A DNA stretch of 62,592 bases, the filler included, from Basidiobolus ranarum (lineage: Eukaryota): the NCBI GenBank assembly GCA_040143965.1. It is 38 parts of 38 records of this genome, joined end to end, with 100 filler letters (N's around TTAATTAATTAA, not from the genome) between each part and the next. Parts side by side here need not be neighbours in the genome. Positions count along the whole stretch, not along the records: positions 51,201 to 52,743 come from JASJQH010011753.1; 37 more parts are not named here. One strand, written 5' to 3'. The notes beneath the pieces were generated by a model. The model did no database searches. It had not been told where the DNA came from and was given only the letters and a program-made list of their open reading frames with translations. Positions 4,974-60,951 of the stretch are shown one piece after another. The stretch's first letter is position 1. Each line of letters starts with the position of its first letter. Position numbers and translations under genes: made by a program.

Positions 4974-5770
4974 AGGTACACCAGTGGGAAGAGCGCCAAA
5001 TTTGGAAGTTTACCCAACACCTGGCACTTCTCAACAAGCCAAAACACCAGCAAATAAAACTCATGGCTCTCCAAGCTCAACTGGTACTTTTCAAAGTGTT
5101 GAAATTAGCCCCAAACTTAAAGGCAAGCAAAAAGCCACACCAACACCACAAAGCATCCTCAGTAGTGTCACACTACCAGGATATACAAAAATAGTAAAAG
5201 TGCTTGAGGAGTATTTTCAAAAGTATGAAGGGGAAAATGCAGTGCAAGTATGCAGAGGCTGGCTTCAGAAGAAGGACATTCAACTTGACATTCAGTCTGG
5301 TGTTGACTGTGTGGACATCTGGGAAGAAGTTAATACAGAGTGGCACAATATTGCAGGGTATCCACCAGATAGCTGGAAGAATGTTGATTCAGCAACATTA
5401 ATACAATGGTGGGCTTTGATGGAAATATTGATACAAACTAGTGTTGGGTATTAAGAACTTTATAAAATATTTAGGAGAATTTATCAAAGAGACTAGGGTT
5501 TTCAAAGGTGACAAATTAGCATTCAAGTGGTAATTGTGAAAAATTTGAGTTACGTTTTTTGCACATGTGTTCATCCATAGTTCTCAGAGATTGTAGCCAA
5601 TCATGTGTAACTATTTTGTGAGATCTTGAAATTTCACACCTGAAACTGAAAAAATTGATTAAAATCAAATACAACTTGACAATTTATGACAGTAAGTAAC
5701 TGTTCAATCACAAATGGATTAAAATTGTCATGGTTTTCCTACAATAACAATCCTCAAATATCTGTTAGGG
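4974..5770 (+). mobile_element. CMC/EnSpm-type element: ORF2 3' part and ORF2-side terminus (...TCTGTTAGGG)
   Basis: ORF 4984-5454 homologous to 35322-36284, 40690-41100, 55745-56027; terminus matches CCCTA end at 35322. Confidence 0.85.
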
Positions 5771-6182: not shown

Positions 6183-7091
6183 GCATCAACTCATACTGGC
6201 CAATCTCAGGCAGATACAGCAACTGTGCAAAGATTTTGTAATTGGATATGAAAAACTTTATCATATGTTTAAAAAGATAGACTGAATCTATGCTGGTATT
6301 CAATACATTCCCTGCTGCATTGTTCATAATGATTAGAGATCATAGGCCCTTGCTATACATTTTGGGAGTTCCCAATGGAGCACATCTGCAGTGAAATGAT
6401 GCTCTGTGTGAAATTGTCAGCATTACCATATACTAATCTGATTAAAAATGTGTCAGCAAGATCAGTGATGAATGTAATGCAATGGGTTAAGGAGACTCCA
6501 GAGTATATTAACCTTCCAACAGAGGGTTCTNNNNNNNNNNNNNNNNNNNNNNNNNNNNNNNNNNNNNNNNNNNNTTAATTAATTAANNNNNNNNNNNNNN
6601 NNNNNNNNNNNNNNNNNNNNNNNNNNNNNNAAATTTCAGATGTTTAGCACTTTATCCACCATTAGTTTCCAAGAAAAGCATATTGATGTTGTTGAATTAT
6701 ATCTAATCAGTCAAATATGTGAATATGTAGAGAATAAACACAACAAGATTCTTGTATTTTTTGATTCTCATTATGGCGGAATACAAAGCCTAAAATATCG
6801 AAATAAAGGCATGCATATTAGTTCAAATTCCTACAGCAGCAAACCCAGTAATTTGCCATTCAAAAATTATATTTTTGCAAAAATTGCTAGATATTGAATA
6901 ATGCATGCCAAATTTGCGGATCAATATTTTAACAGGTATGAATACTATTAAGATACCATCAAGAAACCGCTGTCACACCATCAAAATCCCTGGCAGAATG
7001 CAAGCCAACAATCTTGCTACAGTTCTCTGACAGTTTTGCTATTTTAGAGGGTGGATCCCATCCGGATCAAATCAATTTTATTTTTGCTAGG
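6183..7091 (+). mobile_element. CMC/EnSpm transposase C-terminal remnants and transposase-side terminus (two contigs: 6183-6530 and 6631-7091)
   Basis: GPCYTFWEFPME motif; 3' end ...TTTTTGCTAGG matches the CCCTAACAAAAAT terminus. Confidence 0.85.
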
Positions 7092-9565: not shown

Positions 9566-9842
9566 CCCTAACAAAAATAAAATTGATTTGATCCAAATTG
9601 GATCCAACCTCCAAAAGAGCAACACTGTCAGAAAACTGTCACAATATTAATAGCTTGCATTCTGCCAGGGATTTTGATGATGTGGCAGTGGTTTCTTGAC
9701 AGTATTTTAATGGTATTCATACATGTTAAAATATTGCTCCTCAAATTGGCATGCATTATTCAATATCCAGCAATTTTTGCAAAAATATAATTTTGAATAG
9801 CAAATCACTGGGTTTACTGCTGTAGGAATTTGATTTAAAATG
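9566..9842 (-). mobile_element. CMC/EnSpm transposase-side terminus (CCCTAACAAAAATAAAATTG)
   Basis: Same terminus at 27861, 30424, 60288; sharp junction with copia sequence. Confidence 0.88.
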
Positions 9843-13253: not shown

Positions 13254-14370
13254 ATCCCGTATAAAAATGGATGGAGGGAGCAACATGTTGCTGTAGCTCA
13301 AGTACAGCATTCTGAAGGTCTTGAATCATTGATGAGTGACTCTCTAACTATTGACTAGTTGCTTCTGAACACTGCATTAACTTCATAGTTTTTTCTTACG
13401 ATTGCATACAAATCATTACAGTGTTCTGCCTGATATTCCCTTGTTGTAATAATTCCATTTAAATTTTCTGTGGAGGGTTGTTCAACAGTGGGCAAAGTAG
13501 CCATTTTGGAAGTTGACAGTCTTGATGGTGTTTTGGTTGAATTTTGTTTGACTACTGATTAACTACACTATTGGGGGATTATAATCACTACACTTGCACT
13601 ATTGCTGGAAAGGAACACATCTGGTAAATTGATTAATGCTTCTTGATTACTTGAGTTAGTTTCTGGCATCTTAATGCCTTCCAAGGTGGATAGCAGATTG
13701 TTAGACTGCTCATCAATTAAGTCCCCTGTTCTTGCCAGTTTTTTTCCTTTTGTGCCAGCAGGCTTTGACTTGGAAGCCTATTTTGATTTAGACCTTGAAC
13801 ACTTTTTGAATGGCTTTGAAATTCCCAATGGTACACTTGATGTAGTGAAATTGCTTAGAAACAGCTTATAATAAGCCTAAATTGCCATCCATTACCAGAA
13901 ATATTGTGTAAATCCCCCAATGACTCATCTGTGACACCATCTCAGCAGCAGCTGATGATATTGATGGCTATACATTAAATACCACTCTTACATAGGAGGT
14001 ACGTTTACTTCACAATGTTGTTCTCATGCCACTACACAAATGTTTAAAGAAGACCTGCTGATATCATCACAAATTAATTTGCTATGAAAGCGGGAGGCTT
14101 AATAGAAAAAATAACCACAAGCATAGTCACTATACAAAGTCACCAGCAGCACAAAGCCTGTTGAATATCAACAGTAATAAGTGCACAAAATCAACCTTAG
14201 TTTTGGCCACTGAGTCCACTTACTATACTTTGCCTCAAAGTTTTAGTAACACACCAAATGTCAAGATACTGTGGAGTTACCACAGTTAATGACCAGAGTG
14301 ATGTAGACAGAAATGTAACTTTGGTCACACCAGTAAGTCCAGACAACTTTGAGGACATGCTGCTAGATGT
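13254..14370. mobile_element. CMC/EnSpm element centre: ORF2 5' (minus, to ~13940) head-to-head with transposase 5' (plus, from ~14026)
   Basis: Colinear with 26484-27860, 51201-52588 and 56237-57669. Confidence 0.87.
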
Positions 14371-14808
14371 TGTCATGATTCTGATCTTGGCATACTGTTC
14401 CACTACAAATTCAACTTGTCTATTATTAGATTACAACATCATAGCTGCTGTGCCATCCCTTCTTTGCAATTTGGTGTCAGTTCATCAAGATTACCTTAAG
14501 TGAAAGTCATGTTCTTTGGAACATTGCATGAGACCTAACCAATCGTGTCATCCACACATAGTGTATTTCTGCCAAAACCTTCCATGGAAGGTCACCTGAT
14601 CATCCTTACATCATCCTTATATCATTTCTCTTTATATTGATCCTTGGACTTGTTCCATTGTGCCAGGATTTATTGGACCTTCGATCAATATATTAGAGTA
14701 AATGTGATTGAAATTGATCATGCCAGAGGGTGATGGATAGTGCCAAATTGTGCTGCATAAATTTTAGAATACTTTATCCAATATGATATATATAGCACAA
14801 TCTGGCAC
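14371..14808 (+). mobile_element. LTR family D 5' part (14371-14644) interrupted by hAT-like terminus (14645)
   Basis: TGTCATGATTC start; TGGACTTGTTCCAT followed by GGCAC/GTGCC subterminal repeats. Confidence 0.8.
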
Positions 14809-23178: not shown

Positions 23179-23831
23179 CAAAATGTTAAACCACTCATCA
23201 TCAGAGCAAGTGACAGCAGCTCTGACATTCAGAGTCTTTTGGTTTGCTGGTTTTCCTATGAGATTTCTACTTTCATGTGCCCAAGCAATTTTGGGTCATT
23301 GTGTAGGCTTAATGGTCCAACACATATTCTGCTCTGCTAGATTGTCATGGTGATGTTCATATGTATGGGGTGGGATAGATTGAAATCCTGTATGAGAATG
23401 GACAGGGGGAGCAGCATGTTGTGTAGCTCAAGTACAGCATTTTGAAGGTCTTGTATCATTGCTTAGTGACTCTCTAACTGTTGACTAGTTGCTTCCAAAC
23501 ACTGCATTATTTGCAATATTGCAGCATTATTGCTTGTCATGGCCTGTATAGCAACTTTGAGGTTTTTACTTATGATTGCATACCAATCATTAGTATTCTG
23601 CCTGCAATTCCCTGATTGTAATAATTCTAATCAAATTTTCAATGGAGGGTTGTTCAATAGTGAGCAGAGTAGCCATTTTGCAAGTTGATGGTCTTGATGG
23701 TGTTTTGGTTGCACTTTGCTCAAGTATTGAATTACTACGTAATTGGTGGATTACAATCTCTTCACTTGCATTATTGCTAGAAAGGAACACATCTGGTATA
23801 TTGATTAATGCTTCATCATTACTTGAGTTAG
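23179..23831 (-). mobile_element. CMC/EnSpm ORF2 middle remnant
   Basis: Reverse complement of 57060-57669 and 40000-40320. Confidence 0.87.
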
Positions 23832-25562: not shown

Positions 25563-26483
25563 TTTGAATTAGATAAGAAAATACAGAAGCTTCTCGTGCA
25601 GTGCATGCTTATATAGGAAAATATTGATGCCGCATATTAAACTGCGTACATTAGTTAGTTTTACCTCCAATAGTGTATACTCCAAAATACTATGATTCAA
25701 ATGATGGGAGTGTATAGCAATCATTACATAATTATGGGAAATTTTAATGTCTCCATCACCGTTTCCTGATTGGAATCAAACTTCTCCTTTTTAGACCAAT
25801 ATGGTCATTACGCCAAGAGAAACAGGTATATTAAGAATTCCTTTGTGTCCACAATGGAAGTTGATGGCACCAGGAAAAAGTAGAGCACACACAATATGCG
25901 AAACAAGTGAAGAGAAGCTTCTATTTGTGATGGTGCTCAACAGCACTATCCGAACTTGATGCTCCATTGTAATAAAGTCAGACTGTCTGGTATATACAGA
26001 GACGTGTAGTTGATAAAATTACCTGAGCTGAGCATAGAGCGTCATGATTATTATTCTTCAACCGATGCACCAACTGTTTCGATGATTGCCGCAGTAATCA
26101 TCCTTAAACTTAAAGTTGGATCTACTTCAAGACCCTGAATTTTCCATAGCAAGGTTAACCGAGTTTCCAAAGCTGGTGGATATAGCTAGATTAATAGAGT
26201 TCCGATAACGCCTTAATATAACTTGACTATGTAACTTGAAAGATGATTACGGGGCAGGAAAAGAAGTGCTTACTAAACCAAGTGTTGGCGCTGATGAGGT
26301 AACCCAAAAAGAAAAGTTTGAGTGAGATAACACATATTGGGCTGGTGGAACTGGCTAATAAGCACAGCATGGCTTGGCCTCACNNNNNNNNNNNNNNNNN
26401 NNNNNNNNNNNNNNNNNNNNNNNNNNNTTAATTAATTAANNNNNNNNNNNNNNNNNNNNNNNNNNNNNNNNNNNNNNNNNNNN

Positions 26484-28035
26484 GTTCTTACTTATGATTG
26501 CATACAAATCATTATGGTGTTCTGCCTGCAATTCCCGCGTTATAAAAAATCAATCCAAATTTTCTACCCAAGGCTGTTCAATAGCTGGCAAAGTAGCCAT
26601 TTTAGAAGTTGATGGTCTTGATGGTGTTTCTATTGAACTTTGCTCAAATATTGACATACTATAAAAGTGGGGGATCACAATCTCTCCACTTGCACTATTG
26701 CTCAAAACAAACTCATCTAATAAATCAATCAATGTTTCATCATTGCTAGAGTTAGTTTCCAGCATTTCAATGCCTTCTAAAGTGGATAATGGATTACTTG
26801 ACTGCTTACAAATTAAGTTCTCTGTTCCTGCTGGTTTATTTCCTTTTGTGCCAGCAGGCTTTTGCTTCAAAGCAGATTTTGATTTTGAATGCTTTTTGAA
26901 TGACATTGTAACTTTCACATGGTTTACTTGGTGTATTGAAATTGCTTAGAAACAGCTTATAATATATCAAATTGCCATACATTATTGGAAATATCTTATA
27001 AATCTCCAGATAACTCATCTGTGACACCATCTCAGAATATGCTGATGATATTCATGAGATATACCTAAAATGCCACCCATATGTAGTAGGCTTTCTTTTT
27101 CTTCAATTTCTTTGCATACCACAACAGAAATGTCTAAACAAGCAATGCTATTATTGACACAAGTTCTTGTGCTGTGAAAGCCAGAGGCTTCATAAAAAAA
27201 TTAATTACAAGCTCAGTCATGGTACAAAGCCACCAGCTGTACAAAGCCTGGTGCATACCAACAGTAATAAGTGCACAAAATAAACTTTAGCTTTGCCCAC
27301 TGAGTTCACTGGCAGTGCATTGCCTCAAAGTTTTGGCAACAATGCCAAAAGTCAAGATACCATGGAGTTGCCACAGTTATATGACCAGAATGATGTAGTT
27401 AGAAATGCAACTTCGGGCAAACCAGTAAGCCAAGACAACTTTGAAGACATGCTGCTAAATGTTGACTTTGGTTATTCCAGTTATGATGGAAGTATATCAG
27501 AAGTTGAGGAAGGTGATGGTTTTGTCTTGGACTCTTTATTATGGGCAGGCCTTGGTCCACTGATAACACTTATGGTAAAGGAAGTAGCTTGGACTATTGA
27601 GAAGTGAAGGGTTTACACCAATATTAGTAACCAGGTGCTTATTAGTTTCCTTACACTTTTGCAGCAGTTGATTGGCAACTGTTGCTTGCCACAGACCTGG
27701 TACAGGTGGAAAACACTTGTCAATTGTGTAACTTATAATCCTTTGATAATCAAAAACTACCTTCTTGCCCAAATGGTTGTTTGACTTTCACTGGTGATCT
27801 GAAAAACCTGAAGTCATGTACTGTTTGTACACAATTGGCAATCACTGAATCAGATTTATACCCTAACAAAAATAAAGTTGATTTGATCCAGATTGGATCC
27901 ACCCTCTGATATGGCAAAACTGTCAGAGAACCATCACAATATTGCTGGCTTGCATTCTGCAAGGGATTTTGATGGTGTGATGGTGGTTTCTTGATGGTAT
28001 CTTTATGGTTTTCATACATGTCAAAATATTGATCC
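26484..28035. mobile_element. CMC/EnSpm element centre (ORF2 minus, transposase plus) with a second copy's terminus at 27861
   Basis: PSCPNGCLTFTG..CTVC motif; CCCTAACAAAAATAAAG at 27861. Confidence 0.88.
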
Positions 28036-28135: not shown

Positions 28136-29686
28136 CATAACACAACAACATCAATATGCTTTACCAGCAAACTGACGGTGGAAAAATTGCTAAACATCTG
28201 AAATTTTGAATAGCATGGACACTTGGCAAATAGCTGACTCTTGTTACCATTCACAATGAGAATAAGCTGTTGGATTTTGGCAAATTTCCTTAAAAAATTC
28301 AGCCAATATATCTCCAACTTGCAGTCAACAAATCTCCTGCCACAAGTAGATGTGTCAATGCTTGAATAGATTACCCCATGGCTAAAACAATAATACTGTG
28401 TATCTTGATCTATCTCACAAAGAAGTTTGTCTTGCAGCTTTCCTAGAAATACCATCAGATTATCACACAAGCAAATTAGTCAGATTATAGAGGTACTTAC
28501 TCTGTGTCCATGGATTGGGCTTTGTTGCTGTTATTGTGCTCCAACAATGCAAAAACCCATGAGCACATTGAAAAGAGCCCTTTGTTGGCAGGGTAATATA
28601 CTCTAGAGTCTCCTTAACCCATTGCATTACATTGATCACTGATTTAGCTGAAACATTGTTAATCAGGTTACATATGGTAATACTGACAATTTCACATGGA
28701 GCATCACTTGCCCACAAGTGCACTGCATTGGGAACTCCCACACTGTAAAGCAAGGGCCTATAATCTCTCAGCATTGTGAAAGATGCAGCATGGAATGTAA
28801 TGAATACTGACATAGATTTAGTCTATCTTCTTTAAACCTGTTATTAAGTTTTTTGTATCCAATTACAAAATCTTTGCACAGTTGCTAGATCTGCCTGAGA
28901 TCTGCCAATGTGAATTGATGCTGTAACAATATATTAACATTATTAACAAACAACTCCCAATGTTGCAAATACTTATCAGGCAGAAATGGTTTCAAAATTA
29001 CACTTGAATATATACAAATCCCATACTTCCAATCTTTTCATTTGAATAAATGCATAGATGAGTGGATATCAATGGAAGGCCTGATAACATTAGATGGTAT
29101 TTTGATGTTCTCAAGCATTTTCCTAATTGATTCAAACTTCAATCCTATCTCAAATGGCTCATTTACATGGAATTTTCCACTATATAGCTAGCAAGTAGTA
29201 TAAGAATTTTGTTGAAGAGAAAGTGCATAGTGCCTAATGGGATGCTCTGACTCCAGCTGATCCCTTTAGGAATATAATCTTAGGCTTATGGCTAATAACA
29301 AGTTTGATGTTAGACTGACTATTTGGTGAATTGATATCAGTGATCATATTGCAATCTGACTGGGCTCTTGATGGTAAAATCATGAAGTTTAGTGTTGTAT
29401 TTGGATAGTAGCAATACATATGGCTGATAAAGTAAACTCCATTGATTTGATAAAATCTTTAGCAAGATAGTTCATTGTGACCCCAAAAACTACAAAGTTT
29501 ACAGATGGCAGGAGCTTCACCAATACATACAAGGATATTAGCTGTGATAAAATATTCACCTATCTGAACCCCATTAGATAACTGTTCAAAATCAGCAATC
29601 AAAGGCTCCAAAAAGCTATCTATAAGCACCGGTGATTTAGGTCCAGATATGATGGATAGTATCAACATATTATGACTCTTATACCA
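28136..29686 (-). mobile_element. CMC/EnSpm (Tnp2-type) transposase remnant, core to C-terminus
   Basis: SIISGPKSPVLIDSFLEPLI, CIGEAPA, GHN, MH motifs; homologous to 49557-51100. Confidence 0.9.
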
Positions 29687-29786: not shown

Positions 29787-30424
29787 TTTTAGCCATGGGG
29801 TAATCTATTCAAGCAATGACACATCTACTTGTGGCAGGACATTTGTTGACTGCAAGTCGGGGATATATTGGCTGAATTCTTTACGGAAATTTGCCAAAAT
29901 CCAAGAGCTTATTCTCATTGTGAATGGTAACAAGAGTCAGCTATTTGCCAAGTGTCAGTGCTATTCAAAATTTCAGATGTTTAGCAATTTTTCCACCATT
30001 AGTTTGCTGGTAAAGCATATTGATGTTGTTGAGTTATGTCTAATCAGTCAAATATGTGCATATGTAGAGACTAAACACAACGAGATTCTTGTATTTTTTG
30101 ATTCTCATTATGGCTGGAATACAAAGCCTAAAATATCTCAATAAAGGCATGCATATTAATTCGAATTCCTACAGCAGTAAACCCAGTAATTTGCCATTCG
30201 AAAATTATATTTTTGCAAAAATTGCTGGATATTGAATAACGCATGCCAAATTTGAGGATCAATATTTTAACATGTATGAATACCGCCAAGATACCATCAA
30301 GAAACCACCGTCACATCATCAAAATCCCTGGCAGAATGCAAGCCAATGATATTGTGATGGTTCTCTGACAGTTTTGCTATTTTGGAGGGTGGATCCAATC
30401 AAATTGATTTTATTTTTGTTAGGG
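29787..30424 (+). mobile_element. CMC/EnSpm transposase 3' end and terminus (...TTTTTGTTAGGG), CpG-retaining copy
   Basis: Clean junction into copia integrase at 30425. Confidence 0.9.
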
Positions 30425-31336
30425 TATATTTTCCACCATTATCAGTATGTATTTTCTTCATTTTAGTTCCAGTTTTGGTCTCCACAAGTGTTTTAAAATC
30501 TCTAAAGATAGAGAGAGCTTCTTCTTTTCTTTCCATAAAGCAGACCCTAGTGTATCTTGTATAATCATCAATCAATGTGATTAAATATCTTTTTCCACCT
30601 AAAGATAAATTATGCATAGGTCCTCACAAATCTGAATGAATTAGATCCAATTTTTTGACAGATTTTATTAAACCAGAGCTTGTGAATGGTTGCCTGGCTT
30701 GTTTTCCATATATACAACCCTCACAAATTTTCATTTTGGTTGCAAGATTATTTTAAATTCCAGAAATTAGGGGATTTTTGAGCATTTTGCACAAATAATC
30801 AGATCCAATATGGCCAAATATCTTATGCCATAATTGAATAGTTTCTTGATTGGAATAACTTATATTTACACATGAACCTCTTGGATTATATGTAAGTTTG
30901 TATAAGTTCTGATCATTTTCTCTCTAAGCTAAATAATTCCCATTTTGATCAGTGATGGTGCATCCTGACTTATCAAAATTGAATTTTAACCTCTCTGAGG
31001 TGGCCTTACATACAGATATTAAATTCTTGGCAATATCTGGAACATGTTGTATATCCTTAAAAGTATACACTTCTCTGCAGAAGCTCCAGTTTAACTGACT
31101 TGAATTGTTCCCATTCCAATAGTATCCAATGTGTGGTTATCTCCCAAGAAAACCTTTCTAATTGGGATTTCTTCATAATCCACAAACCAATGTTTTTCAT
31201 TTGCAAAATGTAGGGAGGCTCAAGAATCTGTTGGATAATTAATCTTTATTCAACATCATAGTTAACTTTAGTTATGATACATATATCAGAAACAGAAAGC
31301 AACGTATCTATAGCCCCTATATTCTAAATAGGAATA
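30425..31336 (-). mobile_element. Ty1/copia family A protease-integrase remnant; family C LTR from 31229
   Basis: LIDDYTRY, HTDNGGKY; homologous to 812-1520. Confidence 0.92.
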
Positions 31337-34735: not shown

Positions 34736-36284
34736 AAATCCCTGGCAGAATGCAAGCCACCAATATTGTGACGGTTCTCTGATGGTTTTGCTATTTCAGA
34801 GGGTGGATCTGATCCGGATCAAATCAATTCTATTTTTGTTCAAGAGAAGCTATCTATTAACACTGGTGATTTAGGTCCAGATATGATGGATAGTATCAAA
34901 ATATTATGACTCTTATACCATTCAGAAGGAGGAAGATTTCAGTTGATTAAGATTTTTAGCCAGCAAGCATTTTGAACAGTATATTTGTTTAGTGAAAAAC
35001 CATCCAGAGCCAATGCAAATGCCTGAACATATGTATTCTCAAAGAAACCTTGACTTCCCAGATTCTGGTAGTGATATCCATCCGGTATATCAGTTATACC
35101 ATCAGCTTTATGGTGAGTACTTTGGTACTGGTTCAATGATATATAATTGGGTGATTTCATCAAAACTTTAAGATGGGGAATCAACAGTATGTAAGCCAAA
35201 AATGAATGATATTTACCTGATTCAGTGATTGCCATTTGTGTGCAAACAGTACATGACTTCAGGTTTTTCAGATTACCAGTGAAGGCCAAACAACCATTTG
35301 GACATGAAGGTAGTTTAATTACCCTAGCGCAAATATGAGGATTGTTATTGTAGGATAACCATAACAATTTGAATCCATTTTGCATTGACCATTTACTTAT
35401 CATCATAAATCATCAAGTTAGATTTGATTTTGAGCAATATTTTCAGTTCCAGGAGTGAGATTACAAGATCTTGCAAAATAGGTTTGCATGATTGGCTACA
35501 ATCTCAGAAAACTATGGATCCACACATGTGCAAAAAACATAACTCAAATTTTACACAACTACCACTTGAATGCTAATTTTCCACCTTCAAAATCCCTAGT
35601 CTCTTTGATACATTCTCCTGAATATTATTATAGAGTTCTTCATACCCAAGGTCTAGCTCATACCCAACACAAGTTTGTATCAATATCTCCATCAAAGCAC
35701 ACCTTTGTATTAATATTCATGAATCAACATCTTTCCAGCTATCTGGCGGATACCCTGCAATATTGTACCACTCTGTATTAAGTTCTTCCCAAATATCTGC
35801 ATGGTCAACACCAGACTGAGTGTCAGGTTGTATGTTCTTGTTCTGGAGCCTCTTTCTGCATACTTGCACTGCATTTTTCCCTTCATACTTTTGAAAATAC
35901 TCCTCAAGCACTTTGACTAATTTTGTATGTCCTTTTAGTGTTATACTACTGAGGGTGCTTTGTGGTGTTTATGTGGCATTTTGCTTGCCTTTACCGTTGG
36001 GGATAATTTCTACACTTTGAAAATTTCTCGCTGAGGTTGGAGAGCCATGAGTTTTATTTGCTGGTGTTTTGGCTTGCTGAGAGGTGCCAGGTGTTAGAAA
36101 AACTTCCAAATTCAGCACTCTTCCAACTGGTGTACCCAGTTCCATGGTGAAATTAAGCTTTTTTGCCAGTATATCTGACTCTGGAAATGCAGATCATTAT
36201 AAAGGAATGAAGAATTTGGGAAGCGGGACAGGAGAGCCAAAACTCACTGGCTCCTTGGCTTTTCCCTTAGGTTTACTAACTTCC
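34736..36284 (-). mobile_element. Three juxtaposed CMC/EnSpm pieces: terminus (to 34840), transposase core (34845-35321), ORF2-side terminus (35322) plus ORF2 3' part
   Basis: FALALDGFSL; CCCTAGCGCAAATATGAGG at 35322; NIAGYPPDSWK. Confidence 0.88.
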
Positions 36285-39250: not shown

Positions 39251-39681
39251 TATAGTATTGAAGGAGGAAAAGAAAGGTCGAGGATAACTTTGGGAGCAAG
39301 AAGAATAATAATGGAAAAGTTAAGTGGCTAGCTTTAATATTAACTCTTCAAAAATATTAAGCCTCCAGCTGATCGAGAGATTTAGACTGACAGGGGACCC
39401 AAATACATGTTCTGGGCCACAAACTGGCATTCATTCTCGCACTTCAACTTTGAACAAAGTTAATTTGGTTGAATTGATTTTAATTGATACAAATATCGCC
39501 GAAAGAACCAATTCTCGGATCGTTCAGCGGGTTCGGTGGGAGAGGCATTAATACAATTTCGATTTACTCCGTTAAATGCTTNNNNNNNNNNNNNNNNNNN
39601 NNNNNNNNNNNNNNNNNNNNNNNNNTTAATTAATTAANNNNNNNNNNNNNNNNNNNNNNNNNNNNNNNNNNNNNNNNNNNN

Positions 39682-41228
39682 AGATCATGCCAGATGGTGT
39701 ACTAGCAGGCTGGATTGAGCGGCATAATCTGACCTGGTCCAATGGAACAAGTCTATTATGTTTCATCTTGCAATATCTACATAAGCCCCATGTATTCCTT
39801 GATCAGACCTCAGTCTGATCAACACCAGTTATCAATAAAGATTCTTGCCAAAGTATCTTCCTTGTCCAGTCTTGTGGTCTACACCCAAGTACCCTCCTGC
39901 CTTCTAGCCTCCTGTCATTGTTTCCATTCCTTGTCCAGTTCCTTATTGTGACAGGTTATGCCAAGTAATAATACCAAAATATTGCAATTGATGCAGTGTT
40001 TGGAAGTAACTAGTCATCTGTTATAGAGTCACTCAACAATGATAAAAGACCTACAGAATGCTGTACTTGAGCTACAGCAACATGCTGCTCCCTCATCCAT
40101 TCTCATATGGGATTTCAATCAATCCTACACCTTACATATGAATATCACCATGCTAATCTAGCAGAGCAGAATATGAGTCAGACCATTAAGCCTACACAAC
40201 AACCTGAAATTACTTGGGCAAATGGAAGTAGAAATCTCATAGGAAAACTGGCAAACAAAAAGACTGTGAATGTCAGAGCTGCCGTCACTTGCTCCAATGA
40301 TGAGTGGTTTAACATTTTGGAGACTGTGTGAAATCTTGCCAAAAATCTTGTTGATTTGGCCCAATTGTGAAAAAACCAAAAACTAGGTGTTGCTCTCAAG
40401 GTTCTTGACTTATTTCATGTTGCTTATCCTGAGTTTTTGCAAGCAAATGGCAATTGGCTAGTACAGGCCTATTTGTGAAACATCTCAGAAAAGTAGATAA
40501 TTATCAACTTGGAAAAGAAAGAAAAGCAGCTAACGTGATTCTCAACAAGTAGCAAGTTAGTAAACCCAAGGAAATGCAATGGAACCAGTGAGCTTAGGCA
40601 TTTCTGTCCCATTTACCAAATTCCTTACACTATTATAATGATCTGGATTTCCAAAGTCACATATACTGCTTAAAAAGCTTAACTTCATCATGGACCTAGC
40701 TATAGCAGTTGGAAGAGGACTTAATTTGAATATTTATCAAACACCTGGCTGCTCTCAACAAGCTAAAACACCAGGAAATAAAGTTCATGGCTCTCCAACC
40801 TCAACTGGTACCTTTCAAAGTGTTGAAATTAGCCCTAAAGTTGAAGGCAAGCCAAAAGCCACACAAACACTGCAAATCACCCTCAGTAGTGTCATACTAC
40901 AAAGACATATGAAATTTGTCAAGGTGCTTGAGAAGAACTTTCAAAAGTATGAAGGGAATAATACAGTCCAAGTATGCAAAAAGTGGCTTCAGAAGATGAG
41001 CATTTAACTTGCCATTCAATCTGGTGCTTACCACATAGATATATGGGAAGAACTTAATACCAAGTGGCTCAAAATTACATGGTATCTACCAGATAGCTAG
41101 AAGATTGTTGATTTAGCAATAGACTTGTTCCATTTTATTGAGCCAGATCAGGCCAGCTAAAAAGTGTGCCAGCACAAATTGGCATGATTGGGCACTATCT
41201 GGCACAATGTTATTTACCATTTTGGAAA
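39682..41228. mobile_element. hAT-like terminus (to 39755), LTR D fragment (39756-39953), CMC ORF2 remnant (39954-41119, plus), second hAT-like terminus (41120)
   Basis: Homology to copies elsewhere in window; sharp junctions. Confidence 0.85.
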
Positions 41229-44621: not shown

Positions 44622-46167
44622 TAAGAAGTTCTCAGATATATATTTTTCAAACTTGTGCTAGAAGCCCCAAACTTTGCACACATGTTCCTGGGACCTTCCT
44701 TAACACATTCTACACAATAGTTTATTTACATCTTGACAAAATTCTAAATGTCAACTTTCTACTCAATAAATTAATAAGTGAAAACCACCAATTCCTCTAA
44801 TTCTCCAAACCACTTCCAACAGGCTCCCAAATACTTTAACAAGAATGACCCATTATCAGAAATTCAAATTCACCCTGCAACCTAGCTGAAAATTTGCAAG
44901 GGTAGTATATATGAAAAGCAAACCAGGTATTCACTCAATAGCTAGGTTTTCATCAAATTGGTCAACATACTGGATCAAATTCATTCAGATTTGTGTGGAC
45001 CTTTCCAAAATCTACACTAATAGAAATTTGAGGATTGTTATTGCAAGAAAACCAACACAATTTTGATCCGTGCTAGATTGACAATGGACTAACCTCTGTT
45101 AAAGTATTTGGAAGCCTGATCAAAGTTGTCTGGAGAAACAGAGAGATTGGTGATATTTACTTGTTGATTTATTGAGTAGTTAGTTCATATTTACAGTATT
45201 GTCATAATGTAAGCAAACTAACATGTAGAATTGGTTAAGGAAGGTACCAGAAACATGGGTGCAACATTTAGGGCTTCTGGCACAAGTCAGAAAAATATAT
45301 ATATCTGGGAACCTCTAAGTAGGTAAATATATTTTCAGTAAATTGCAATTGAGAATGTTGAATAATATATAAGTGAAATATAAGCTAATTAAGTACTAAG
45401 CTATATAGGACTATATAAGTGTTTAGGCAATGCTATTTTCAACACTATCATGAAATTGCCAAGTTAGATTTGATTTTAATCAATTTTTGAGTTTCAGCTG
45501 TGAAGTTTCTAGATCTCCCAAAATAGTTGCACATGATTGACTACAATCTCAGAGAACCATGGATCAACACAGGTGCAAAAAACATCACTTCAAATTTACC
45601 TAATTACCACTTGAATACTAATTTTACACCTCTGTTTTGTGAATAGGCCTATCTGGCCCAATTGCCATTTGCTTGCAAAAACACAGATAAGCCACATGAA
45701 ATAAGCCAAGAAACATCTGAGTAATACTTGGTCTTTGGTTTTTCCACAATTGGTGCAAAGCAAGCTAATATTAGACAGGATTTGACACAGTATCCAAAAT
45801 GTTAAGCCATTCATCATCAGTGCAAGTGATAGCAGTGCCAACATTCAGCATCTTTTGATTTGCTGGTTTTCCTGTGTTATTCATACTTTCATGTGTCCAA
45901 GCTGTTTTGGATCAATAAGGCATGTTTAAAATATGTAACTCTAATTTTACACATTTTCCACTTGAATGCTTACTTGTCACCTTTGAAATCTCTAGTTTCT
46001 TGAATACATTCTCCTGAATATTTTCATAGAGTTCTTCCTACCCAAGGTTTGGCTCATATGCAACACAAGCTTGTATGACTTTCTCCATCCAAGCCAACCA
46101 TTGTATTAATGTTGCTTAATCAACATTCTTCCAGCTATCTGGTGGATACCCTGCAATATTGTGCCAC
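44622..46167. mobile_element. LTR A end, copia fragment, CMC ORF2-side terminus (variant CACTA at 45015) interrupted by LTR A (45097-45444, minus), rearranged ORF2 pieces
   Basis: CACTAATAGAAATTTGAGG aligns with the termini at 35322 and 5770. Confidence 0.8.
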
Positions 46168-49556: not shown

Positions 49557-51100
49557 CTTGTCTGAAAGATTTGATGAAATCACCCAAATATATATCATTG
49601 ATCCAATACCAACGTACTCACTGTAAAGCTGATGATATTACTGATATACTTGATGGATATCACTACCAGAATCTGAAAAGCCAAGGTTTCTTTGAGAACA
49701 CATATGATCATGCATTTGCATTGGCTCTGGATGGTTTCTCACTAAACAAATACAACATTGTAAAGGCTTGCTGGCCAAGAATTTTAATGAACTTAAATCT
49801 TTGTCCTTCTGAGCAGTTTAAAAGTCAAAATATTTTGATACCATCCATCATATTTGGACCTAAATCACCATTGCTTATAGACAGCTTCCTGGAGCCTTTG
49901 ATTGCAGAATTGGAAGGGTTTTCAAATGTGGTTCAGAATGGTGAATATTTTATTTAAGCTAATATCATTGTATGCATTGGTGACACTCCTGTCATCAGTA
50001 AACTTGGAGGTTTTTGCAGGCACAATGCACTGTCTAGTGGTAGATTTTGTCAAATCAATGGAGTTTACTCTAACAGGCATATGTGTTATTACTATCCAAC
50101 TACAACACTAAACTTCATGATTTTACCATCAAGAGCCTGGTCATATTTCAATATGAGCACTGATATCAATTTGCCAAATAGTCAGTCTAACATCAAACTT
50201 GGTATTAGCAATAAGCCTAAGATTATATTGCTACAGGGGATTAGCTGGAGCCAGAGCTTCCCATCAGGCACTATGCACTTACTATTCAACAACATTTCAA
50301 TACTGCTTACTCAGCTTTATAGTGGAAAATCAGTATGAATGAGCCATTTGAGATATGATCAACATTTGAATCAATTGGGAAAATGCTTGAACACATCAAG
50401 ATACCATAGTATTTTTCCAGCACTTCCATCAATATGCACTCATCTAGGCATTTATTTAAATGCAAAGACTGGAAGTACTGGATTTGTATATATTCAAGTG
50501 GAATTTTGAAATGATTTCTGCCTGATAAGTATTGGCAACATTGGGAGTTGTTTGTCAATATTGTGAATATGTTCTTACAGCATCAACTCATATTGGCAGA
50601 TCTCAGGCAGATATGGCAATTGTGCAAAGATTTTGTAATTGGATATGAAAAACTTTATTACAGGTTCAAAGAAGATAGACTGAATCTATGCCAGTATTCA
50701 ATACATTCCCTGCTGGATCTTTCACAATGCTTAGAGATTATAGGCCCTTGCTATACATTCTGGGAGTTCTCAATGGAGTGCACCTATGGTCAAATGATGC
50801 TCTGTGTGAAATTGCCAGTATTACCATATGCTAATCTGATTAACAGTGTAGCAGCAAAATCAGTGATGGATGTAATGCAATAGGTTAAGGAGACTCCAGA
50901 GTTTATTAACCTGCCAACAAAGGGCTCTCTTCAATATGCTCATTGTTTTTGCATTGTTTGAGCACAATAACAGCAACAAAGCCCAATCCATGGACACAGA
51001 GTAAGTACCTGTATAATTGGACTAATTTAATTGTGTGATAATCTGATTGTATTTTTAGGAAAGCTACAAAACAGACTTCTTGGGGAGATAGATCAAGATA
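49557..51100 (+). mobile_element. CMC/EnSpm (Tnp2 / Transposase_21-type) transposase catalytic region, pseudogenised
   Basis: ALDGF, CWP-IL-NLNL-P, GPKSP, GDTP, GTMH, KDWKYW, GPCYTFWEFSME. Confidence 0.9.
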
Positions 51101-51200: not shown

Positions 51201-52743
51201 GGAACTTATCTGGTAAATTGATTAATGCTTCATCAGTACTTGAGCTAGGTTCTGGCATGTTAATGCCTTCCATATTGGATATTGGATTGCTAGACTGCTC
51301 ATCATTTGTGTCCTCTTTTCTTGCTGGTTTTTTTCCTTTTGTAACAGCAGGCTTTGGCTTGGAGGCCAATTGTGACTTGGTTTTTGAATGCTTTTTGAAT
51401 GGCTTTGAATTTTCAGATAGTAAACTTGCTGTAATGAAATTGCTTAGAAACAGCTTGAAATAAACTAAAATTGCCATTCATTACTGGAATTTTCTTGAAA
51501 ATCCCCTGATGACCTATCTGCGACATTTTCTCAGAATCAGCTAGTGATATTGATGGGCTATACCTTAAATACCACCCTTATGTAACAGGTGTTCTTTTTT
51601 CCACAATAACCTTTTCATGCCACAACACAAATGTTTAAAGAAGCCTTGCAATTATTGTCACAAACTCTTGTGCTATGAAAGACAGAGGCTTCATAGAAAG
51701 AATACTCACATGCACAGTCACTGCACAAAGCCACCAGCTGCACAAAGCCTGGTGAATATCAACAGTAATAAATACACAAAATTGACTTTAGTTTTGCCCA
51801 CTAAGTGCACTGACCGTACTTTGCCTCAAAGTTAAGGTAACACTGCTGAAAGTCAAGATACCATGGAGTTACCATAGTTATATGACCAGAATGATGTAGA
51901 TAGAAATACAACTTTGGTCAAACCAGTAAGTCCAGCCAACTTTGAGGACATGCTGCTAGATGTTGACCTTGGTTATTCCCTTACTGATGGTAGTATATCA
52001 GAAGTTGAAGAAGAAGACAACAGTTTGTTATTGACTCTTTGTTGTTGGCAAGCATTAGTCCACTCATAACACTTAATGTAATGGAAGCAGCTTTGATTAT
52101 TGAGGAGTGGAGAGTTCAATCCAATCATAGCAACCAGGTGTTTATTGGTTTTCTTAATCTTTTACCACAGTTGATTGGCTACTGTTGCTTGCCACAGACC
52201 TGGTACAAGTTGAAAACACTTGTCAATCATATGACCTATAATCCTTCAGTTATTAAACTACCCTCATGTCCAAATAGTTGTTTGGCTTTCACCAGTAATC
52301 TGAAAGCCTGAAGTCATGTACTGTTTGCACACAATTGGCAATCACTGAATCAGGTGAATATTGTTCATATTTGGCCTACATACCATTGATTCCCTGTCTT
52401 AAAGCTTTGATTAAATCACCCAAATATAGCTCATTGATCCATTACAAAAGTACTCACCATAAAGCTGATGGTATTACCAGCATACTTAATGGATATCACT
52501 ACCAGAATCTGAAAAGTCAAGGTTTCTTTGAGAACATATATAATCATGCATTTGCATTGGCTCTGGATGGTTTCTTGCTAAACAAATATGTTGAAGTTTA
52601 TTGTCTTTATCATATTTATTATCTCTATCTTTATATACCTAACTATCTCATATATCACATATAAGTTAGTTAACATTACTTAGTCAAATATCACTTAGCT
52701 GAAAATCAGAACATATATTATATATATATGTGAATAATGTGAG
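51201..52743. mobile_element. CMC/EnSpm centre: ORF2 5' (minus), transposase 5' half (51617-52588); LTR E from 52589
   Basis: MPQHKCLKKPCNYCHK N-terminal Cys motif; CPNSC..CTVC; ALDGF. Confidence 0.9.
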
Positions 52744-52843: not shown

Positions 52844-54385
52844 TAAATTCCAATTGAGAATAATTGATAATAACTTAGTGAGTTATAAGATAACTAATTA
52901 CTAAGTTATATATGACTATATAGGTGTTTAGGCAATGCTAATTTCAACACTTTCCAGACATGTTTCCCTTCTAGCACTAGTTTCATCTTGAATTTTCATT
53001 CATGGAAATCTTCCCCATTAAATGTTGGAAAATTGGTAATCTCCTTTTGGGAAAAACACTCCAATTCACTCACTGCTACCATGTTGGAGGATCTTGACAT
53101 AATGGGGGTAGACTTTGGGTATTAGAAGCAACTTATAATAGTGTGTTTTAGTTAGTTTATTTTGAAGAGTATATGGTTATGTATATAGTAGAAAAGTGAA
53201 TCAACTATTTGAGATATTCAGGAGTTTGTGTAATAAGATATAACAGATAAGTGGGGGTAATAAGACATACTTGTTATATAGATATAGAGATATTCCTATT
53301 TAGAATTTAGGGGCTATAGATACATTGCTTTCTGTCTCTGACATATGTATCATAGCTAAAGTTAACTATGGTGTTGAATAAAGATTAATTATCCAACAAT
53401 TCCCAATCAAAATTTACTTAGAATATTTTTATCAACTTAGAAGTTCTTAGAGATAAAGATTTTTAAAACTTGTGCTAGAAGCCCCAAACTTTGCACACAT
53501 CTTCCTGCAACCTTTCTTAACACATTCTATATGCTTGTTTGCTTATATCTTAACATAGTTATAGATGTCAGCTTTATACTGAATAAATTAATAAGTGAAA
53601 ACCACCAATTCCTCTAATTCTCCAAGCCACTTCCAACAGGCTCCCAAATACTTTAACAAGTATATCCTGGATATACTAAAGAAGTTTAAAATGGAAGTAG
53701 GTAATCAAGCATCTACCCTAACAGAGACAAATCTTAACTTGACCAAAAATAGCTCAAATCAGATGTTTTTGGATTCAAATGAAAGCCAGAAATTTCCTTA
53801 TCAATCTATGGTTGGTAGTTTGATGAATATCATGGTGGGAACATGTCCAGATATTCCATATTTTGTGGGAGTTATGTGCCAATATCTGCAAAATTATGAA
53901 TCTGATCAAATAATAGCAGTTAAGTAGATTTTCAGATATTTGAAAGGTACTGTGGATCTGTGCTTAAAATACACATATTGTTGGATAATCAATCTTTATT
54001 CAACCCCATAGTTAGCTTTAGTTATGATACATATATCAGAAACAGAAAGCAACATACCTATAGCCCCTATATTCTAAACAGGAATATCTCTATATCTATA
54101 TAACAAGTATGTCTTATTACCCACACTTATCTATTATATCTTATTACACAAACTACTGAATATACAAACAATTGATTTACTTTTCTACTATATAAGTCAC
54201 CATATACTCTTAAGAATAAAGTGACTAAAAACACACTATCATAAGGTGCTTCTAATACTCAAAGTCTGCCCCCATTATGTCAAGATCCTCCAACATGGTA
54301 GCAGCAAGTGAATTAGAGTCTTCTTCCTAAAAGGAGATTACTAATATTCCAACATTCAATGGGGAAGATTTCCATGCATGGAAAT
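52844..54385. mobile_element. Nested copia cluster: two family C 5' ends in opposite orientation (LTRs 53082-53398 minus, 53979-54295 plus), each with PBS TGGTAGCAG; LTR A pieces and an RT fragment
   Basis: 317-bp LTRs; gag PTFNGEDFH-WK; PYQSMVGSLM. Confidence 0.92.
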
Positions 54386-54485: not shown

Positions 54486-56027
54486 ACAAAATCTACAGCA
54501 AGATAGTGCATTGTGCCCACAAAAACCTCCAAGTTTACTGATGGCAGGAGTGTCTGTTGGATAATTGATCTTTATTCAACATCATAGTTAACTTTAGTTA
54601 TGATACATATATCAGAAACAGAAAGCAACATATCTATAGCCCCTATATACTAAATAGGAATATCTCTATATCTATATAACAAGTATGTCTTATTACCCCC
54701 ACTTATCTATTGTATCTTATTACACAAACTCCTGAATATCTCAAATAATTGATTTACTTTTCTACTATATAAGTCACCATATACTGTTGAGATTAAACTA
54801 ACTAAAACACACTATCGTAAGTTGCTTCTAATACTCAAAGTCTACCCCCATTATGTCAAGATCCTCCAACAGTGTCACCAATACATATAACAATATTAGC
54901 TTTAATAAAATATTCACCCATATGAACCCCATTAGATCATTGTTCAAATTCCGCAATCAAAGCCTCCAAGAAGCTATCTATAAGCACTGGTGATTTAGGT
55001 CCAGATATGATGGATAGTATCAAAATATTATGATGCTGATACCATTCAGCAGGAGGAAGATTTAAGTTGATTAAATTATTGGCCAGCAAACCTTTCCAAC
55101 AGTATTTTTGTTTAGTGAGAAACCTTCCAGAGCAAATGCAAATGCATGATCATACATGTTCTCAAAGAAACCTTGACTTTTCAGATTCTGGTAGTGGTAT
55201 CCATCAAGTATATTGGTAACATTATCAGCTTTATGGTGAGTACTTTGGTATTGGATCAATGATCTATATTTGGGTGATTTCATCAAGCTGTAAGATGTGG
55301 AATCAATGGTATTTAAGCCAAATATGAATGACATTTACCTGATTCAGTGATTGCCAATTGTGTGCAAACAGTACATGACTTCAGGTTTTCAGATCACTGG
55401 TGAAAGCCAAACAACCATTTGGACATGAGGGTAGTTTAATTACTGAAGGATTATAAGTCATACAATTAACAAGTGTTTTCCACTTGTACCAGGTCTGTGG
55501 CAAACAACAGTTGCCAATCAACTGTGCTAAAAGTGTAAGAAAACTAATAAACAACTGGTTGCCAGGATTGGATTGCACTCTCCACTCCTAAATATGTAAG
55601 GAGCAGGAAGTTAGTAAACTCAAGGGAAAAGCAAAGGAGCCAGTGAGTTTAGGCTCTACTGTCCCACTTACTGGACTCTTCACACCATCATAAAGATCTA
55701 CATATACAGAGTCAGATATATTAGCAAAAAAGCTTAATTTCACCATGGAACCGGGTACAACAGCTGGAAGAGTGCTAAATTTGGAAGTTTATCCAACACC
55801 TGGCACCTTTCAACAAGCCAAAACACTAGGAATTAAAACTCACAGCTCTCCCACCTCAACTGGTACTTTTCAAAGTATTGACATTAGCCCCAGAGGTAAA
55901 GGCAAACAAAAGCCATACAAACACCACAAAGCACCCTCAGTAGTGTCACACTACAAGGATGTACAAAAATAGTCAAAGTGCTTGAGGAGTATTTTCAAAA
56001 GTATGAAGGGAAAAACACAGTGCAAGT
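54486..56027. mobile_element. Internally deleted CMC/EnSpm copy (transposase minus to ~55590; ORF2 3' part plus)
   Basis: 5' ends of both genes and the intergenic region are missing relative to other copies. Confidence 0.82.
54555..54871 (+). repeat. Solo LTR family C (317 bp) with perfect 5-bp TSD GTGTC inside a CMC transposase
   Basis: GTGTC at 54550-54554 and 54872-54876. Confidence 0.95.
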
Positions 56028-56236: not shown

Positions 56237-57669
56237 ATGAGTGGACTAATGTTTGCCAATAACAAAGAGTCCGTAACAAAATCTTTGTCTTCTTCTTCAA
56301 CTTCTGATATACTACCATCAGTACTGGAATAACCAAGGTCAACATCTAGCAGCAAGTCCTCAAAGTTGTCTGGACTAATTGGTTTAACAAAAGTTGCATT
56401 TTGATCTACATCATTCTGGTCATATAACTGTGGTAACCCCATGGTATCTTAACTTTTGGCAGTGTTACCAAAACTTTGAGGCAGACTACAGTCAGTGGAC
56501 TCAATGGGCAAAACTAAAGTTGATTTAGTGAACTTATTACTGTTGTTATACACCAGGGTTTTTTTGCAGCTGGTGGCTTGGTACAGTGACCGTGCCTAAG
56601 ATTATTTTTTCATTGAAGCCTCTGGCTTTCATAGCACAAGAACTTGCAACAAAAATAGCAGGGCCTCTTTAAATGTTTGTGTTGCAGCATGAGAAGGATA
56701 TTGTAGAAAAAAGAACACCTCCAACACAAGGGTGGCATTTCAGGTATAGCCCAACAATATCATCAGCTGATTCTGAGAGAGTGTCACAGACAAGTCATCA
56801 GGGGATTTACAAGAAACATTTAGTATTGTATGGTGATTTTGGTTTATAATAAGCTGTTTCCAAGCAATTTCATTACACCAAGTTTACCATCTAAATATTT
56901 CAATGCCATTCAAAAAGTTTCCAAATCTAAATTACAATTAGCTTCCAAGCCAAAGCCTGCTGGCACAAAAGGAAAAAATCCAGCAAGAAAAAGAGGACTT
57001 AATTGATGAGCAGTCTAGTAATCCACTATCCATTTTGAAAGGCATTAACATGCCAGAAACTAACTCAAGTAATCATGAAGTATTTATCAATTTACCAAAT
57101 GTGATCCTTTCCAGCAATAGTGCAAGGGAAGAGATTGTAATCCCCCAATCACATAGTGAAAGAATAGTTGAGCAAAGTTCAACCAAACAACCGTCAAGAC
57201 CATAAACTTTCAAAGTGGCTACTTTACCCACTATTGAACAACCCTTGGTAAAAATGTTGGATAAAGTTATTACAACAAGGCAATTGCAGACAGAGCACCA
57301 TACTGATTTGTATGCAATGATTAGTAAAAACTACAAAATTGCTATACAAGCCATGACAAGCCATAATGCCACAATATTGCAATCAATGCAGTGTTTGGAA
57401 ATAACTAGTCCACAGTTAGAGAGTCACTCAACAATTATACAAGACCTTGAGAATGCTGTACTTGAGCTATAGCAATATGCTGCTGCCTCCATCCATTCTC
57501 ATACAGGATTTCAATCAATCCCACACCATACATATGAAAACTACCATGACAATCTAGTAGAGCAAAATATGTGTTGGACCATTAAGCCTTCACAACAACC
57601 CAAAATTGCTTGTGCACATGAAAGTAGAAATCTCATAGGAAAACCGGCAAACCAAAAGACTCTGAATGT
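56237..57669. mobile_element. CMC/EnSpm centre: transposase 5' (minus) and ORF2 5' half (plus)
   Basis: Reverse complement of 51201-52067. Confidence 0.88.
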
Positions 57670-60287: not shown

Positions 60288-60951
60288 CTATAACAAAAAT
60301 AAAATCAATTTGATCCGGATTGGATCTACCCTCCAAAAGAGCAAAACCATCAGAGAACCATCACAATATTGTTGGCTTGCATTCTGCCAGGGATTTTGAT
60401 GGTGTGATGGTGGTTTCTTGACAGTATCTTAATGGTACTCATATATGTTAAAATATTTATCCTCAAATTTGGCATGTGTTATTCAATAGCCAGCAATTTT
60501 TGTAAAAATATAATTTTCAAATGGCAAATTACTGGGTTTACTGCTCTAGGAATTTGAATTAATATGCATGCCTTTATTTAGCTATTTTATGCTTTGAATT
60601 CCAGCCATAATGAGAATCAAAAAATACAAGAATCTTGTGTTTAGTCTCTACATATGCACATACTTGACTGATTAGACATAACTCAACAACATCAATATGC
60701 TTTACCAGCAAACTAATGGTTGAAAAATTGCTAAACATCAGAAATTTTGAATAGCACTGACACTTGGCAAAGAGCTGACTCTTGTTACAATTCACAATGA
60801 GAATAAACTCTTGGATTTTGGCAAATTTCCATAAAGAATTCAGCCAATATATCCCCAACTTGCAGTCAACAAATGTCCTGCCATAAGTAGATGTGTCATT
60901 GCTGGAATAGATGACCCCATGGCTAAAACAATAATACTGCATATCTTCATC
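60288..60951 (-). mobile_element. CMC/EnSpm transposase 3' end and degenerate terminus
   Basis: Reverse complement of 29787-30424. Confidence 0.88.

Follow-up and report, generated by a model that had tools for sequence, protein, structure and literature searches.

A Tnp2/EnSpm-type DNA transposon of Basidiobolus ranarum with a divergent second gene

We analyzed a 62,592-nt stretch of DNA from the fungus Basidiobolus ranarum (assembly GCA_040143965.1), here called the window, which consists of 38 contigs (c04, c09 and so on) of 1541–1558 nt each, ordered by size and joined by runs of N with the spacer TTAATTAATTAA. One repeat family in it is a Tnp2/EnSpm-type DNA transposon in which the transposase gene stands head-to-head with a second gene, here called open reading frame 2 (ORF2). 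What we propose below for the function of ORF2 is put forward as hypotheses.

Two divergent genes in one repeat family

The family was mapped by an all-against-all BLAST of the contigs and by a BLAST search of a scaffold for which seven contig pieces were tiled. Pieces of a single repeat family were found on 17 of the 38 contigs, in agreement with the abundance, if not with the exact count (about 18), given by an earlier sequence-only reading of this DNA. The tiled element is 5172 nt long, with an alignment depth of 1–6 copies, and no tiling junction lacks a contig that aligns across it over hundreds of bases. Its order of terminus, ORF2 (minus strand), transposase (plus strand) and terminus, as well as its length of roughly 5 kb, are those that the same reading had proposed. 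On the scaffold, ORF2 runs from ~2060 down to ~252 and ends ~250 nt from the left end, while the transposase runs from 2200 to ~4890 and ends ~280 nt from the right end. The left end and the 3′ end of ORF2 occur together in three contigs, and the transposase and the right end in overlapping contigs.

In all four contigs named for this arrangement (c09, c17, c32, and c35), ORF2 and the transposase start on opposite strands, 137–139 nt apart (Table 1). The head-to-head start codons were therefore as first described, and the gap, originally given as ~90–140 bp, could be narrowed to this measured range. Pairwise identity between the four stretches is 78–85% over 765–1171 nt (BLAST), and their alignment is unbroken through the spacer. 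The copy in c35 includes the N-terminal half of ORF2 with its heptad region. The copy in c32 is broken at 52589, where the stretch flagged at the outset ends, and the remaining 154 nt (from 52590) match another repeat, seen in c14. An internally deleted copy in c34 lacks ~1.7 kb including both starts and retains the divergent orientation. From this arrangement we infer that the spacer of 137–139 nt is a shared bidirectional promoter.

The transposase was identified with the Pfam profile hidden Markov model Transposase_21 (tnp2), the search that had been suggested for it, which matched c31 in frame 3 with 46.8 bits against a cut-off of 28.6 (E 2.7e-12); matches in c18 (21.4 bits) and c22 (24.5 bits) fell below the cut-off. 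The protein is of the DDE type and about 900 codons long. We then compared it with the CMC signature (D, D, C(2)C, H(3)H, E), as defined in the available text of PMC12730594. The first D motif (AFALALDGF) is legible in c31, c22, and c32; the second (CIGDTP) is present in c31, with E at that position in c18. The C(2)C motif has decayed in both copies (SGRFC in c31, C*RFY in c18; consensus CRFC), H(3)H is kept in c18 (HSMLH) and reads HSLLD in c31, and the E motif (WEFPME) is found in c04 and c31, with Q in c18. The Transposase_21 match and these motifs make the element EnSpm/CACTA in the transposase sense and, judged by its transposase sequence, a member of the Tnp2/EnSpm branch of the CMC supergroup. 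Its initial description as an abundant Tnp2/EnSpm-type (CMC) DNA transposon with two divergent genes is thereby borne out by the Transposase_21 match, the 17 of 38 contigs and the head-to-head layout in four of four. Where the transposase consensus changes frame, single copies read through (c35 at EVEEEDKDFVTDS, c22 at NLKNLKSCTVC), so that introns need not be invoked in the first half of the gene.

Both ends of the element could be defined. The left terminus is CCCTAACAGAAAT and the right terminus ...TGTTAGGG, and the two form imperfect inverted ends of 13 nt, with 12 of the 13 positions matching in the consensus. The left end was found three times with three different flanks, reading CCCTAACAGA... 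in c04, CCCTAGCGCA... in c22 and CACTAATAGA... in c28 (45015–45033). The right end, ...TTTTTGTTAGGG, was found with five different flanks in c19, c37, c05, c06, and c17, and once truncated in c22. CACTA stands at one of the three left ends (c28) and CCCTA at the other two; the full TTAGGG is present at three of the six right ends (c19, c06, and c17), c05 has CTAGG, the final GGG is missing from c37, and c22 is truncated. The terminus of the family is therefore mostly CCCTA, a one-base variant of CACTA.

Each of the nine ends has a different flank, and these flanks share no common insertion site; four of the nine ends adjoin Ty1/copia-type sequence. The dinucleotide TA adjoins five of the nine, against a TA frequency of 0.083 (p ~4e-4), all of them single ends with no complete insertion among them. 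This bias hints at TA, or a TA-containing sequence, as the target duplication.

All copies seen are dead, with stops, frameshifts, CpG decay, nesting and deletions. The ratio of observed to expected CpG is 0.00–0.27 in about two thirds of the contigs, which are transposon sequence, against 0.42–0.79 in about nine contigs of ordinary genes, and 86 CpG restorations were needed to build the 5.2-kb consensus. The copies are methylation-decayed, and the CpG loss is restricted to repeats.

Several arrangements of the ends were also observed. Family copies are nested in each other, and three of the nine ends lie against one and the same 475-nt segment of the transposase gene. In c22 (34736–36284) a truncated right end lacking AGGG is followed by 477 nt of antisense transposase (scaffold 3307–2832) and then by the left end of another copy. 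The transposase of c17 is broken at 27853 (scaffold 2936), where a second copy intrudes with its right end inverted (27859–28035). Contig c28 (44622–46167) is scrambled and contains left-end nt 3–55, 374 nt of unrelated sequence, scaffold 78–268, the ORF2 middle (1022–1291) and again 204–431. The same foreign repeat end lies twice in the 5′ region of ORF2, in c15 from 23832 (scaffold 1831) and in c25 at 39682–39953 (scaffold 1538), and it matches c21 and c06. A single telomere-type repeat unit is present at either end of the element, 5′-CCCTAA on the left and TTAGGG-3′ on the right (for example 5752–5770 and 30415–30426). An excised linear copy would thus end in TTAGGG-3′ on both strands, which may be due to chance. 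On the wider, tentative reading of ORF2 given below, such units could also have a purpose, for example that of engaging host factors that bind telomere repeats.

Table 1. Copies and pieces of the element in the window; positions count along the whole stretch.
Feature	Contig	Position	Strand	Remarks
ORF2 5′ part	c32	51201..51477	-	ATG at 51477; first ~92 codons, running off the contig end; aligns to c09, c17, c35
Spacer between divergent starts, putative bidirectional promoter	c32	51478..51616	.	139 nt; four copies align through it
Transposase 5′ third (MPQHKC...)	c32	51617..52589	+	Stops and frameshifts; D1 motif AFALALDGF
Second head-to-head copy	c09	13254..14372	+	ORF2 start 13888 (-), transposase ATG 14026
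Third head-to-head copy	c17	26484..27853	+	ORF2 start 26978 (-), transposase start 27116, its ATG decayed to ATA
Fourth head-to-head copy	c35	56237..57669	-	Transposase ATG 56690 (-), ORF2 start 56830 (+)
Internally deleted copy	c34	54871..56027	-	ORF2 3′ part (55602-56027) joined to transposase position ~2681 (54871-55594)
ORF2 N-terminal region	c15	23179..23831	+	ORF2 on minus strand; cut at 23831 by another repeat
ORF2 middle (WFNIL...FHVAYPEFLQANGNWLVQAYL, basic linker)	c25	39958..41119	+	Links N- and C-terminal contigs
ORF2 C-terminus and left terminus	c04	4974..5770	+	159 open codons (4975-5451); terminus 5752-5770, CCCTAACAGATATTTGAGG on minus strand
Left terminus and ORF2 C-terminal part with full C-terminus	c22	35322..36282	-	Terminus 35322-35340; inserted in the transposase of another copy
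Transposase catalytic core	c31	49557..51100	+	Transposase_21 match; motifs D1, D2, C2C, H3H, E
Transposase core and C-terminal part	c18	28136..29684	-	1287 nt overlap with c31 at 86% identity; leads into c19, c37
Transposase C-terminus and right terminus (...TTTTTGTTAGGG)	c19	29787..30426	+	Ends near 30424-30426
Right-end piece	c37	60291..60951	-	
Right-end piece	c05	6631..7091	+	Adjoins copia-like sequence
Right-end piece	c06	9566..9842	-	Adjoins copia-like reverse-transcriptase ORF

ORF2 and its relatives

The majority consensus of ORF2 is open over 299 N-terminal and 192 C-terminal codons. The complete frame is nearer 600 codons than the ~550 residues first estimated; the motifs WFNIL, NWLVQAYL, EWHNIAGYPPDSWK, and LIQWW lie at the places where they had been noted. 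Lys-rich tracts are found at the N-terminus and in the linker (isoelectric point ~10). In the heptad region hydrophobic residues occupy 15 of the 22 a/d positions, whereas their overall fraction is 0.40. The Trp-rich C-terminal domain is acidic to neutral, with isoelectric points of 4.6–6.9 in five relatives, which suggests that it would fit a protein-binding module better than a DNA-binding one.

Relatives were sought with the open 159-codon C-terminal piece of c04 in an exhaustive HMMER search of 1.84 billion representative proteins, which gave eight matches (E 6e-46 to 4e-9), and word-indexed searches added five further fragments. Six matches are partial hypothetical proteins of Basidiobolus ranarum on contigs of at most 5 kb and the rest come from metagenome or read-archive assemblies; these Basidiobolus proteins are the closest named ones, in line with the fungal origin that had been assumed. 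Distant relatives, at 28–45% identity, retain the middle motif, the basic linker and the Trp-rich helical C-terminal domain. The protein P0011 (264 aa) begins with FHVAYPGFLRANGYW, continues with a basic linker rich in Ser, Thr and Pro and has the Trp-rich domain at its end. It aligns collinearly with ORF2 over 256 residues (28% identity), a stretch that reaches from the FHVAYP motif across the linker into the C-terminal domain. P0009 (238 aa) shares the linker and the domain, and P0010 has an intact C-terminal part of 189 aa at 74% identity. W, H and PP do not vary across the family, and W, Y, F, and C at further positions hardly do. This architecture and the invariant residues in distant relatives are good evidence of long-term constraint on the protein, and we conclude from these comparisons that ORF2 is a real coding gene.

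The searches for longer or host-like relatives were negative. No protein of 280–2000 aa was found with the profile of the C-terminal domain, which is weak evidence; the middle domain retrieved one Basidiobolus fragment only; no host-like full-length relative appeared in the protein searches, and viral contigs gave no match. Two metagenome loci, L001 and L002, were rejected as false positives. The second is bacterial, in a neighborhood of threonyl-tRNA synthetase, IF3, and L20, and its match lies in an unrelated large protein by way of EYFEKYE; the first gave the same 32% match to the same query residues.

Two deposited Basidiobolus ranarum models, P0001 and P0013, are partial hypothetical proteins that represent fragments of ORF2. 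P0013 is spliced out of order, and the first 17 aa of P0001 match the repeat of c21. Gene models of this kind mean that transposon relics inflate the Basidiobolus ranarum proteome.

No Pfam family (E ≤ 0.01) was matched by the ORF2 pieces of the window or by six relatives, in keeping with the initial impression that ORF2 belongs to no recognizable family. A PDB sequence profile search gave a best E of 0.14 (dynein light chain), which is not significant. In a feature search of a protein atlas the best score for P0011 was 0.77, and P0013 scored 0.90–0.91 to three clusters of hypothetical proteins, to be taken as a lead only.

Possible role of ORF2 and alternative readings

We think it somewhat probable, at slightly better than an even chance, that the family represents dead copies of an autonomous cut-and-paste Tnp2/EnSpm transposon of ~5.2 kb and that ORF2 is its element-specific accessory protein, as opposed to a captured host gene. 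With the short spacer as a shared bidirectional promoter, both proteins would be made together. The Lys-rich tracts of ORF2 would serve nuclear import and unspecific DNA contact, the heptad region would form ORF2 oligomers, and the Trp-rich helical domain at the C-terminus would be the binding site for a partner protein, which in the simplest case would be the transposase. In this way ORF2 would help to bring the transposase to the element ends or to hold these ends together. Our best guess is a helper role that would be comparable to that of TnpA or of the second protein of PIF/Harbinger, without common ancestry.

Several observations weigh against this proposal. Both termini were never found on one contig, so that the single unit is read from overlaps among tiled copies that are 80–90% identical. 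The putative promoter and the proposed co-expression are read from the 137–139 nt spacing, and the linkage of ORF2 to the transposase was observed in this genome. The ratio of nonsynonymous to synonymous polymorphism (pN/pS) between ORF2 copies was 0.49–2.17 in frame (18 pairs) against 0.43–1.38 in shifted frames, and purifying selection between copies was therefore not seen. The transposase copies likewise gave in-frame pN/pS values no lower than those of the shifted-frame controls. Values at the shifted-frame level mean that the copies record neutral decay only and are uninformative on selection.

The ends gave no sign of the subterminal repeat arrays to which TnpA binds, within 340 nt at either end. 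With words of k = 8, four recur in the ends, against a mean of 0.9 and up to 10 in internal windows. A 12-nt word, AAATTTGAGGAT, lies close to the left end and again at 178 nt from the right one, and is unconvincing as a motif array. Structure prediction was a further weak point. Of two AlphaFold jobs on the C-terminal domain, the first gave a mean predicted local distance difference test score (pLDDT) of 44.4, and the second reached 67.1 with a predicted template modeling score of 0.57; only one of the five models of the second job was above 50, the other four being at 40–47. The better model is a five-helix bundle of middling confidence. Foldseek against the PDB returned no match at E ≤ 0.001 among 129 at E ≤ 10, and in a VIA-align search of 48,161 chains the top Z was 5.3 and seven chains reached Z ≥ 5, below the noise level stated for helical bundles. 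As only helical matches at noise level were obtained, no fold can be named for ORF2, and the check by AlphaFold and Foldseek that had been suggested for it ended with weak models and no match above noise.

The sequence-only reading had gone further and called ORF2 a TnpA-equivalent or anti-silencing factor. This could not be upheld, as Transposase_24 and Transposase_23 are absent, subterminal arrays were not seen and no fold match was informative. A wider version of our own proposal is possible, and we offer it tentatively: ORF2 may found a hitherto undescribed family of helpers for the Tnp2-type transposases of early-diverging fungi. It would be expressed together with the transposase from an internal bidirectional promoter of 139 nt, and by means of a coiled coil and the Trp-rich acidic helical domain it would either bring in or assemble the transposase or protect the element against silencing by methylation.

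The CpG depletion of the transposon contigs relative to the gene contigs, at observed/expected ratios of 0.00–0.15 against 0.6–0.8, points to heavy targeting of these elements by the host, and ORF2 might accordingly be a counter-defence or anti-silencing factor against host CpG methylation or chromatin silencing, dispensable for the cut-and-paste reaction itself. Such a role would parallel that of the TET/JBP dioxygenases of other fungal DNA transposons. Accessory anti-methylation genes are indeed carried by fungal EnSpm and other DNA transposons, according to the available text of PMC12730594, and the acidic C-terminal domain looks like a protein binder and not like a DNA binder. We nevertheless regard this role as unlikely, given that Pfam detected no Tet_JBP or other enzymatic domain in ORF2, no fold was matched, nothing in the sequence ties ORF2 to chromatin, and all the copies seen have decayed by methylation regardless.

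ORF2 would be of no use to the element at all if it were a passenger, that is, a host or foreign gene captured once and without function for the transposon. Gene capture by fungal CMC elements is documented in the available text of PMC12730594, ORF2 has no similarity to known transposon proteins, and the Basidiobolus fragment that lies near three clusters of hypothetical proteins (atlas score 0.90–0.91) can be read, as a lead only, in the same sense. A captured gene is nonetheless quite improbable here, since the protein searches found no host-like full-length relative and ORF2 keeps the same place and the 137–139 nt spacing in copies that differ by 15–22%. The order of middle motif, linker and domain also persists at ~30% identity, which is hard to reconcile with a lack of function.

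That the two-gene unit is an artefact of tiling, with ORF2 and the transposase belonging to two repeats often made adjacent by nesting, is very improbable: it would suit the heavy nesting and rearrangement (c22, c17, c28, c10, c15, and c25) and the lack of a contig with both termini, but the junction is identical to the base in four independent, diverged copies, none of which has a terminus between the two genes, the left end CCCTAACAGAAAT and the right end are inverted repeats at 12 of 13 positions, and the junction between ORF2 and the transposase is constant where the ends have nine different flanks.

CMC/EnSpm elements account for a large share of the repeats in Basidiobolus and in other fungi. 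To our knowledge, almost nothing is known of how these fungal elements work, and what is known of a second protein comes from plant En/Spm (TnpA). If the accessory-protein reading is true, a conserved, unrelated helper gene placed back-to-back with the transposase would mean that transposition machineries of two proteins evolved repeatedly in a single superfamily, and would provide a defined protein to test. Were ORF2 only a passenger, the finding would be routine repeat annotation. The family also explains the breakage of the assembly into 1.5-kb contigs, and many of the partial hypothetical proteins in the deposited annotation, which are fragments of the element.

Surrounding sequence and comparison with known systems

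Other repeats and genes share the window with the family. A 317-nt repeat with TGTTGG...CCAACA ends lies inside the transposase of c34 (54555–54871), flanked by a 5-nt duplication, GTGTC, and looks like a solo long terminal repeat; it recurs in c33 (53082–53398 and 53979–54295), c05 (7252–7569), and c27 (44239–44521). Inspection of long ORFs by eye showed diverged Ty1/copia-type fragments (gag zinc knuckle, protease, integrase, reverse transcriptase, and RNase H) in c01, c06, c11, c14, c21, c27, c29, and c33. Ordinary host genes recognized by eye are a 338-codon exon of the V-type ATPase catalytic subunit A (c24, 38034–39581, minus strand), a flavodoxin-like/WrbA-type quinone reductase (c02, 1659–3216, plus strand), and a Gly-rich secreted or membrane protein (c16, 24832–26383, minus strand). 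ARAGORN found no tRNA-like gene in the whole window.

Like maize En/Spm and the plant CACTA elements, which encode TnpD and TnpA, the Basidiobolus element combines a Tnp2-type DDE transposase (Transposase_21) with a second element-encoded protein. Short inverted ends are likewise common to both; here they are 13 nt long and start with C-A/C-C-T-A, mostly CCCTA and not CACTA. In En/Spm both proteins are made from one strand by alternative splicing, whereas the two genes here diverge from a spacer of 137–139 nt. Unlike TnpA, ORF2 has no match to Transposase_24 or Transposase_23, and subterminal arrays were not found within 340 nt of either end.

A transposase is also paired with a second protein in PIF/Harbinger (a Myb-like protein) and in MuDR (mudrA with mudrB). 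The shared logic is that of a transposase and a family-specific helper in the same element, although the transposase superfamily differs. No Myb/SANT or other DNA-binding fold was detected in ORF2 by Pfam or PDB profile, and the fold searches were uninformative. Assignment of the element itself to PIF/Harbinger was rejected: the only transposase family between the CCCTAAC ends is Transposase_21, and ORF2 has no Myb-like match. MuDR is transcribed inwards from its terminal repeats, whereas the genes here run outwards from the middle.

A large expansion of CMC-EnSpm in Basidiobolus genomes, counted by Transposase_21, Transposase_23, and Transposase_24, was reported by Muszewska et al. (2017, PMC5751038), and the present family is very probably part of it. 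The available text of that study gives counts per superfamily and contains nothing on element structure, ends or a second gene. Among the papers listed, our literature search found no description of the present family or of a divergent two-gene CMC element; an entry in the Repbase or Dfam catalogues is possible.

A parallel for an accessory gene beside a CMC-type transposase is given by TET/JBP-carrying members of the CMCT clade among EnSpm, ESTA, and Plavaka elements, families of Dikarya in the available text of Kojima (2025, PMC12730594). ORF2 differs from these in not being a TET/JBP dioxygenase (no Pfam match), and its host belongs to the Zoopagomycota and not to the Dikarya. The termini of the TET/JBP carriers are mostly 5′-CA..TG-3′ in the same text, whereas those of the present family are 5′-CC...GG-3′ in most copies. 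CMC lineages with 2-bp TA duplications are described in the available parts of two papers, CNEST of Cryptococcus neoformans (PMC12810828) and ESTA (PMC12730594), and a TA-containing target, hinted at by the TA that adjoins five of our nine single ends, would resemble theirs. By the same accounts the transposases of ESTA and CNEST are not recognized by Repbase or Pfam-type searches, whereas that of the Basidiobolus element matches Transposase_21 directly.

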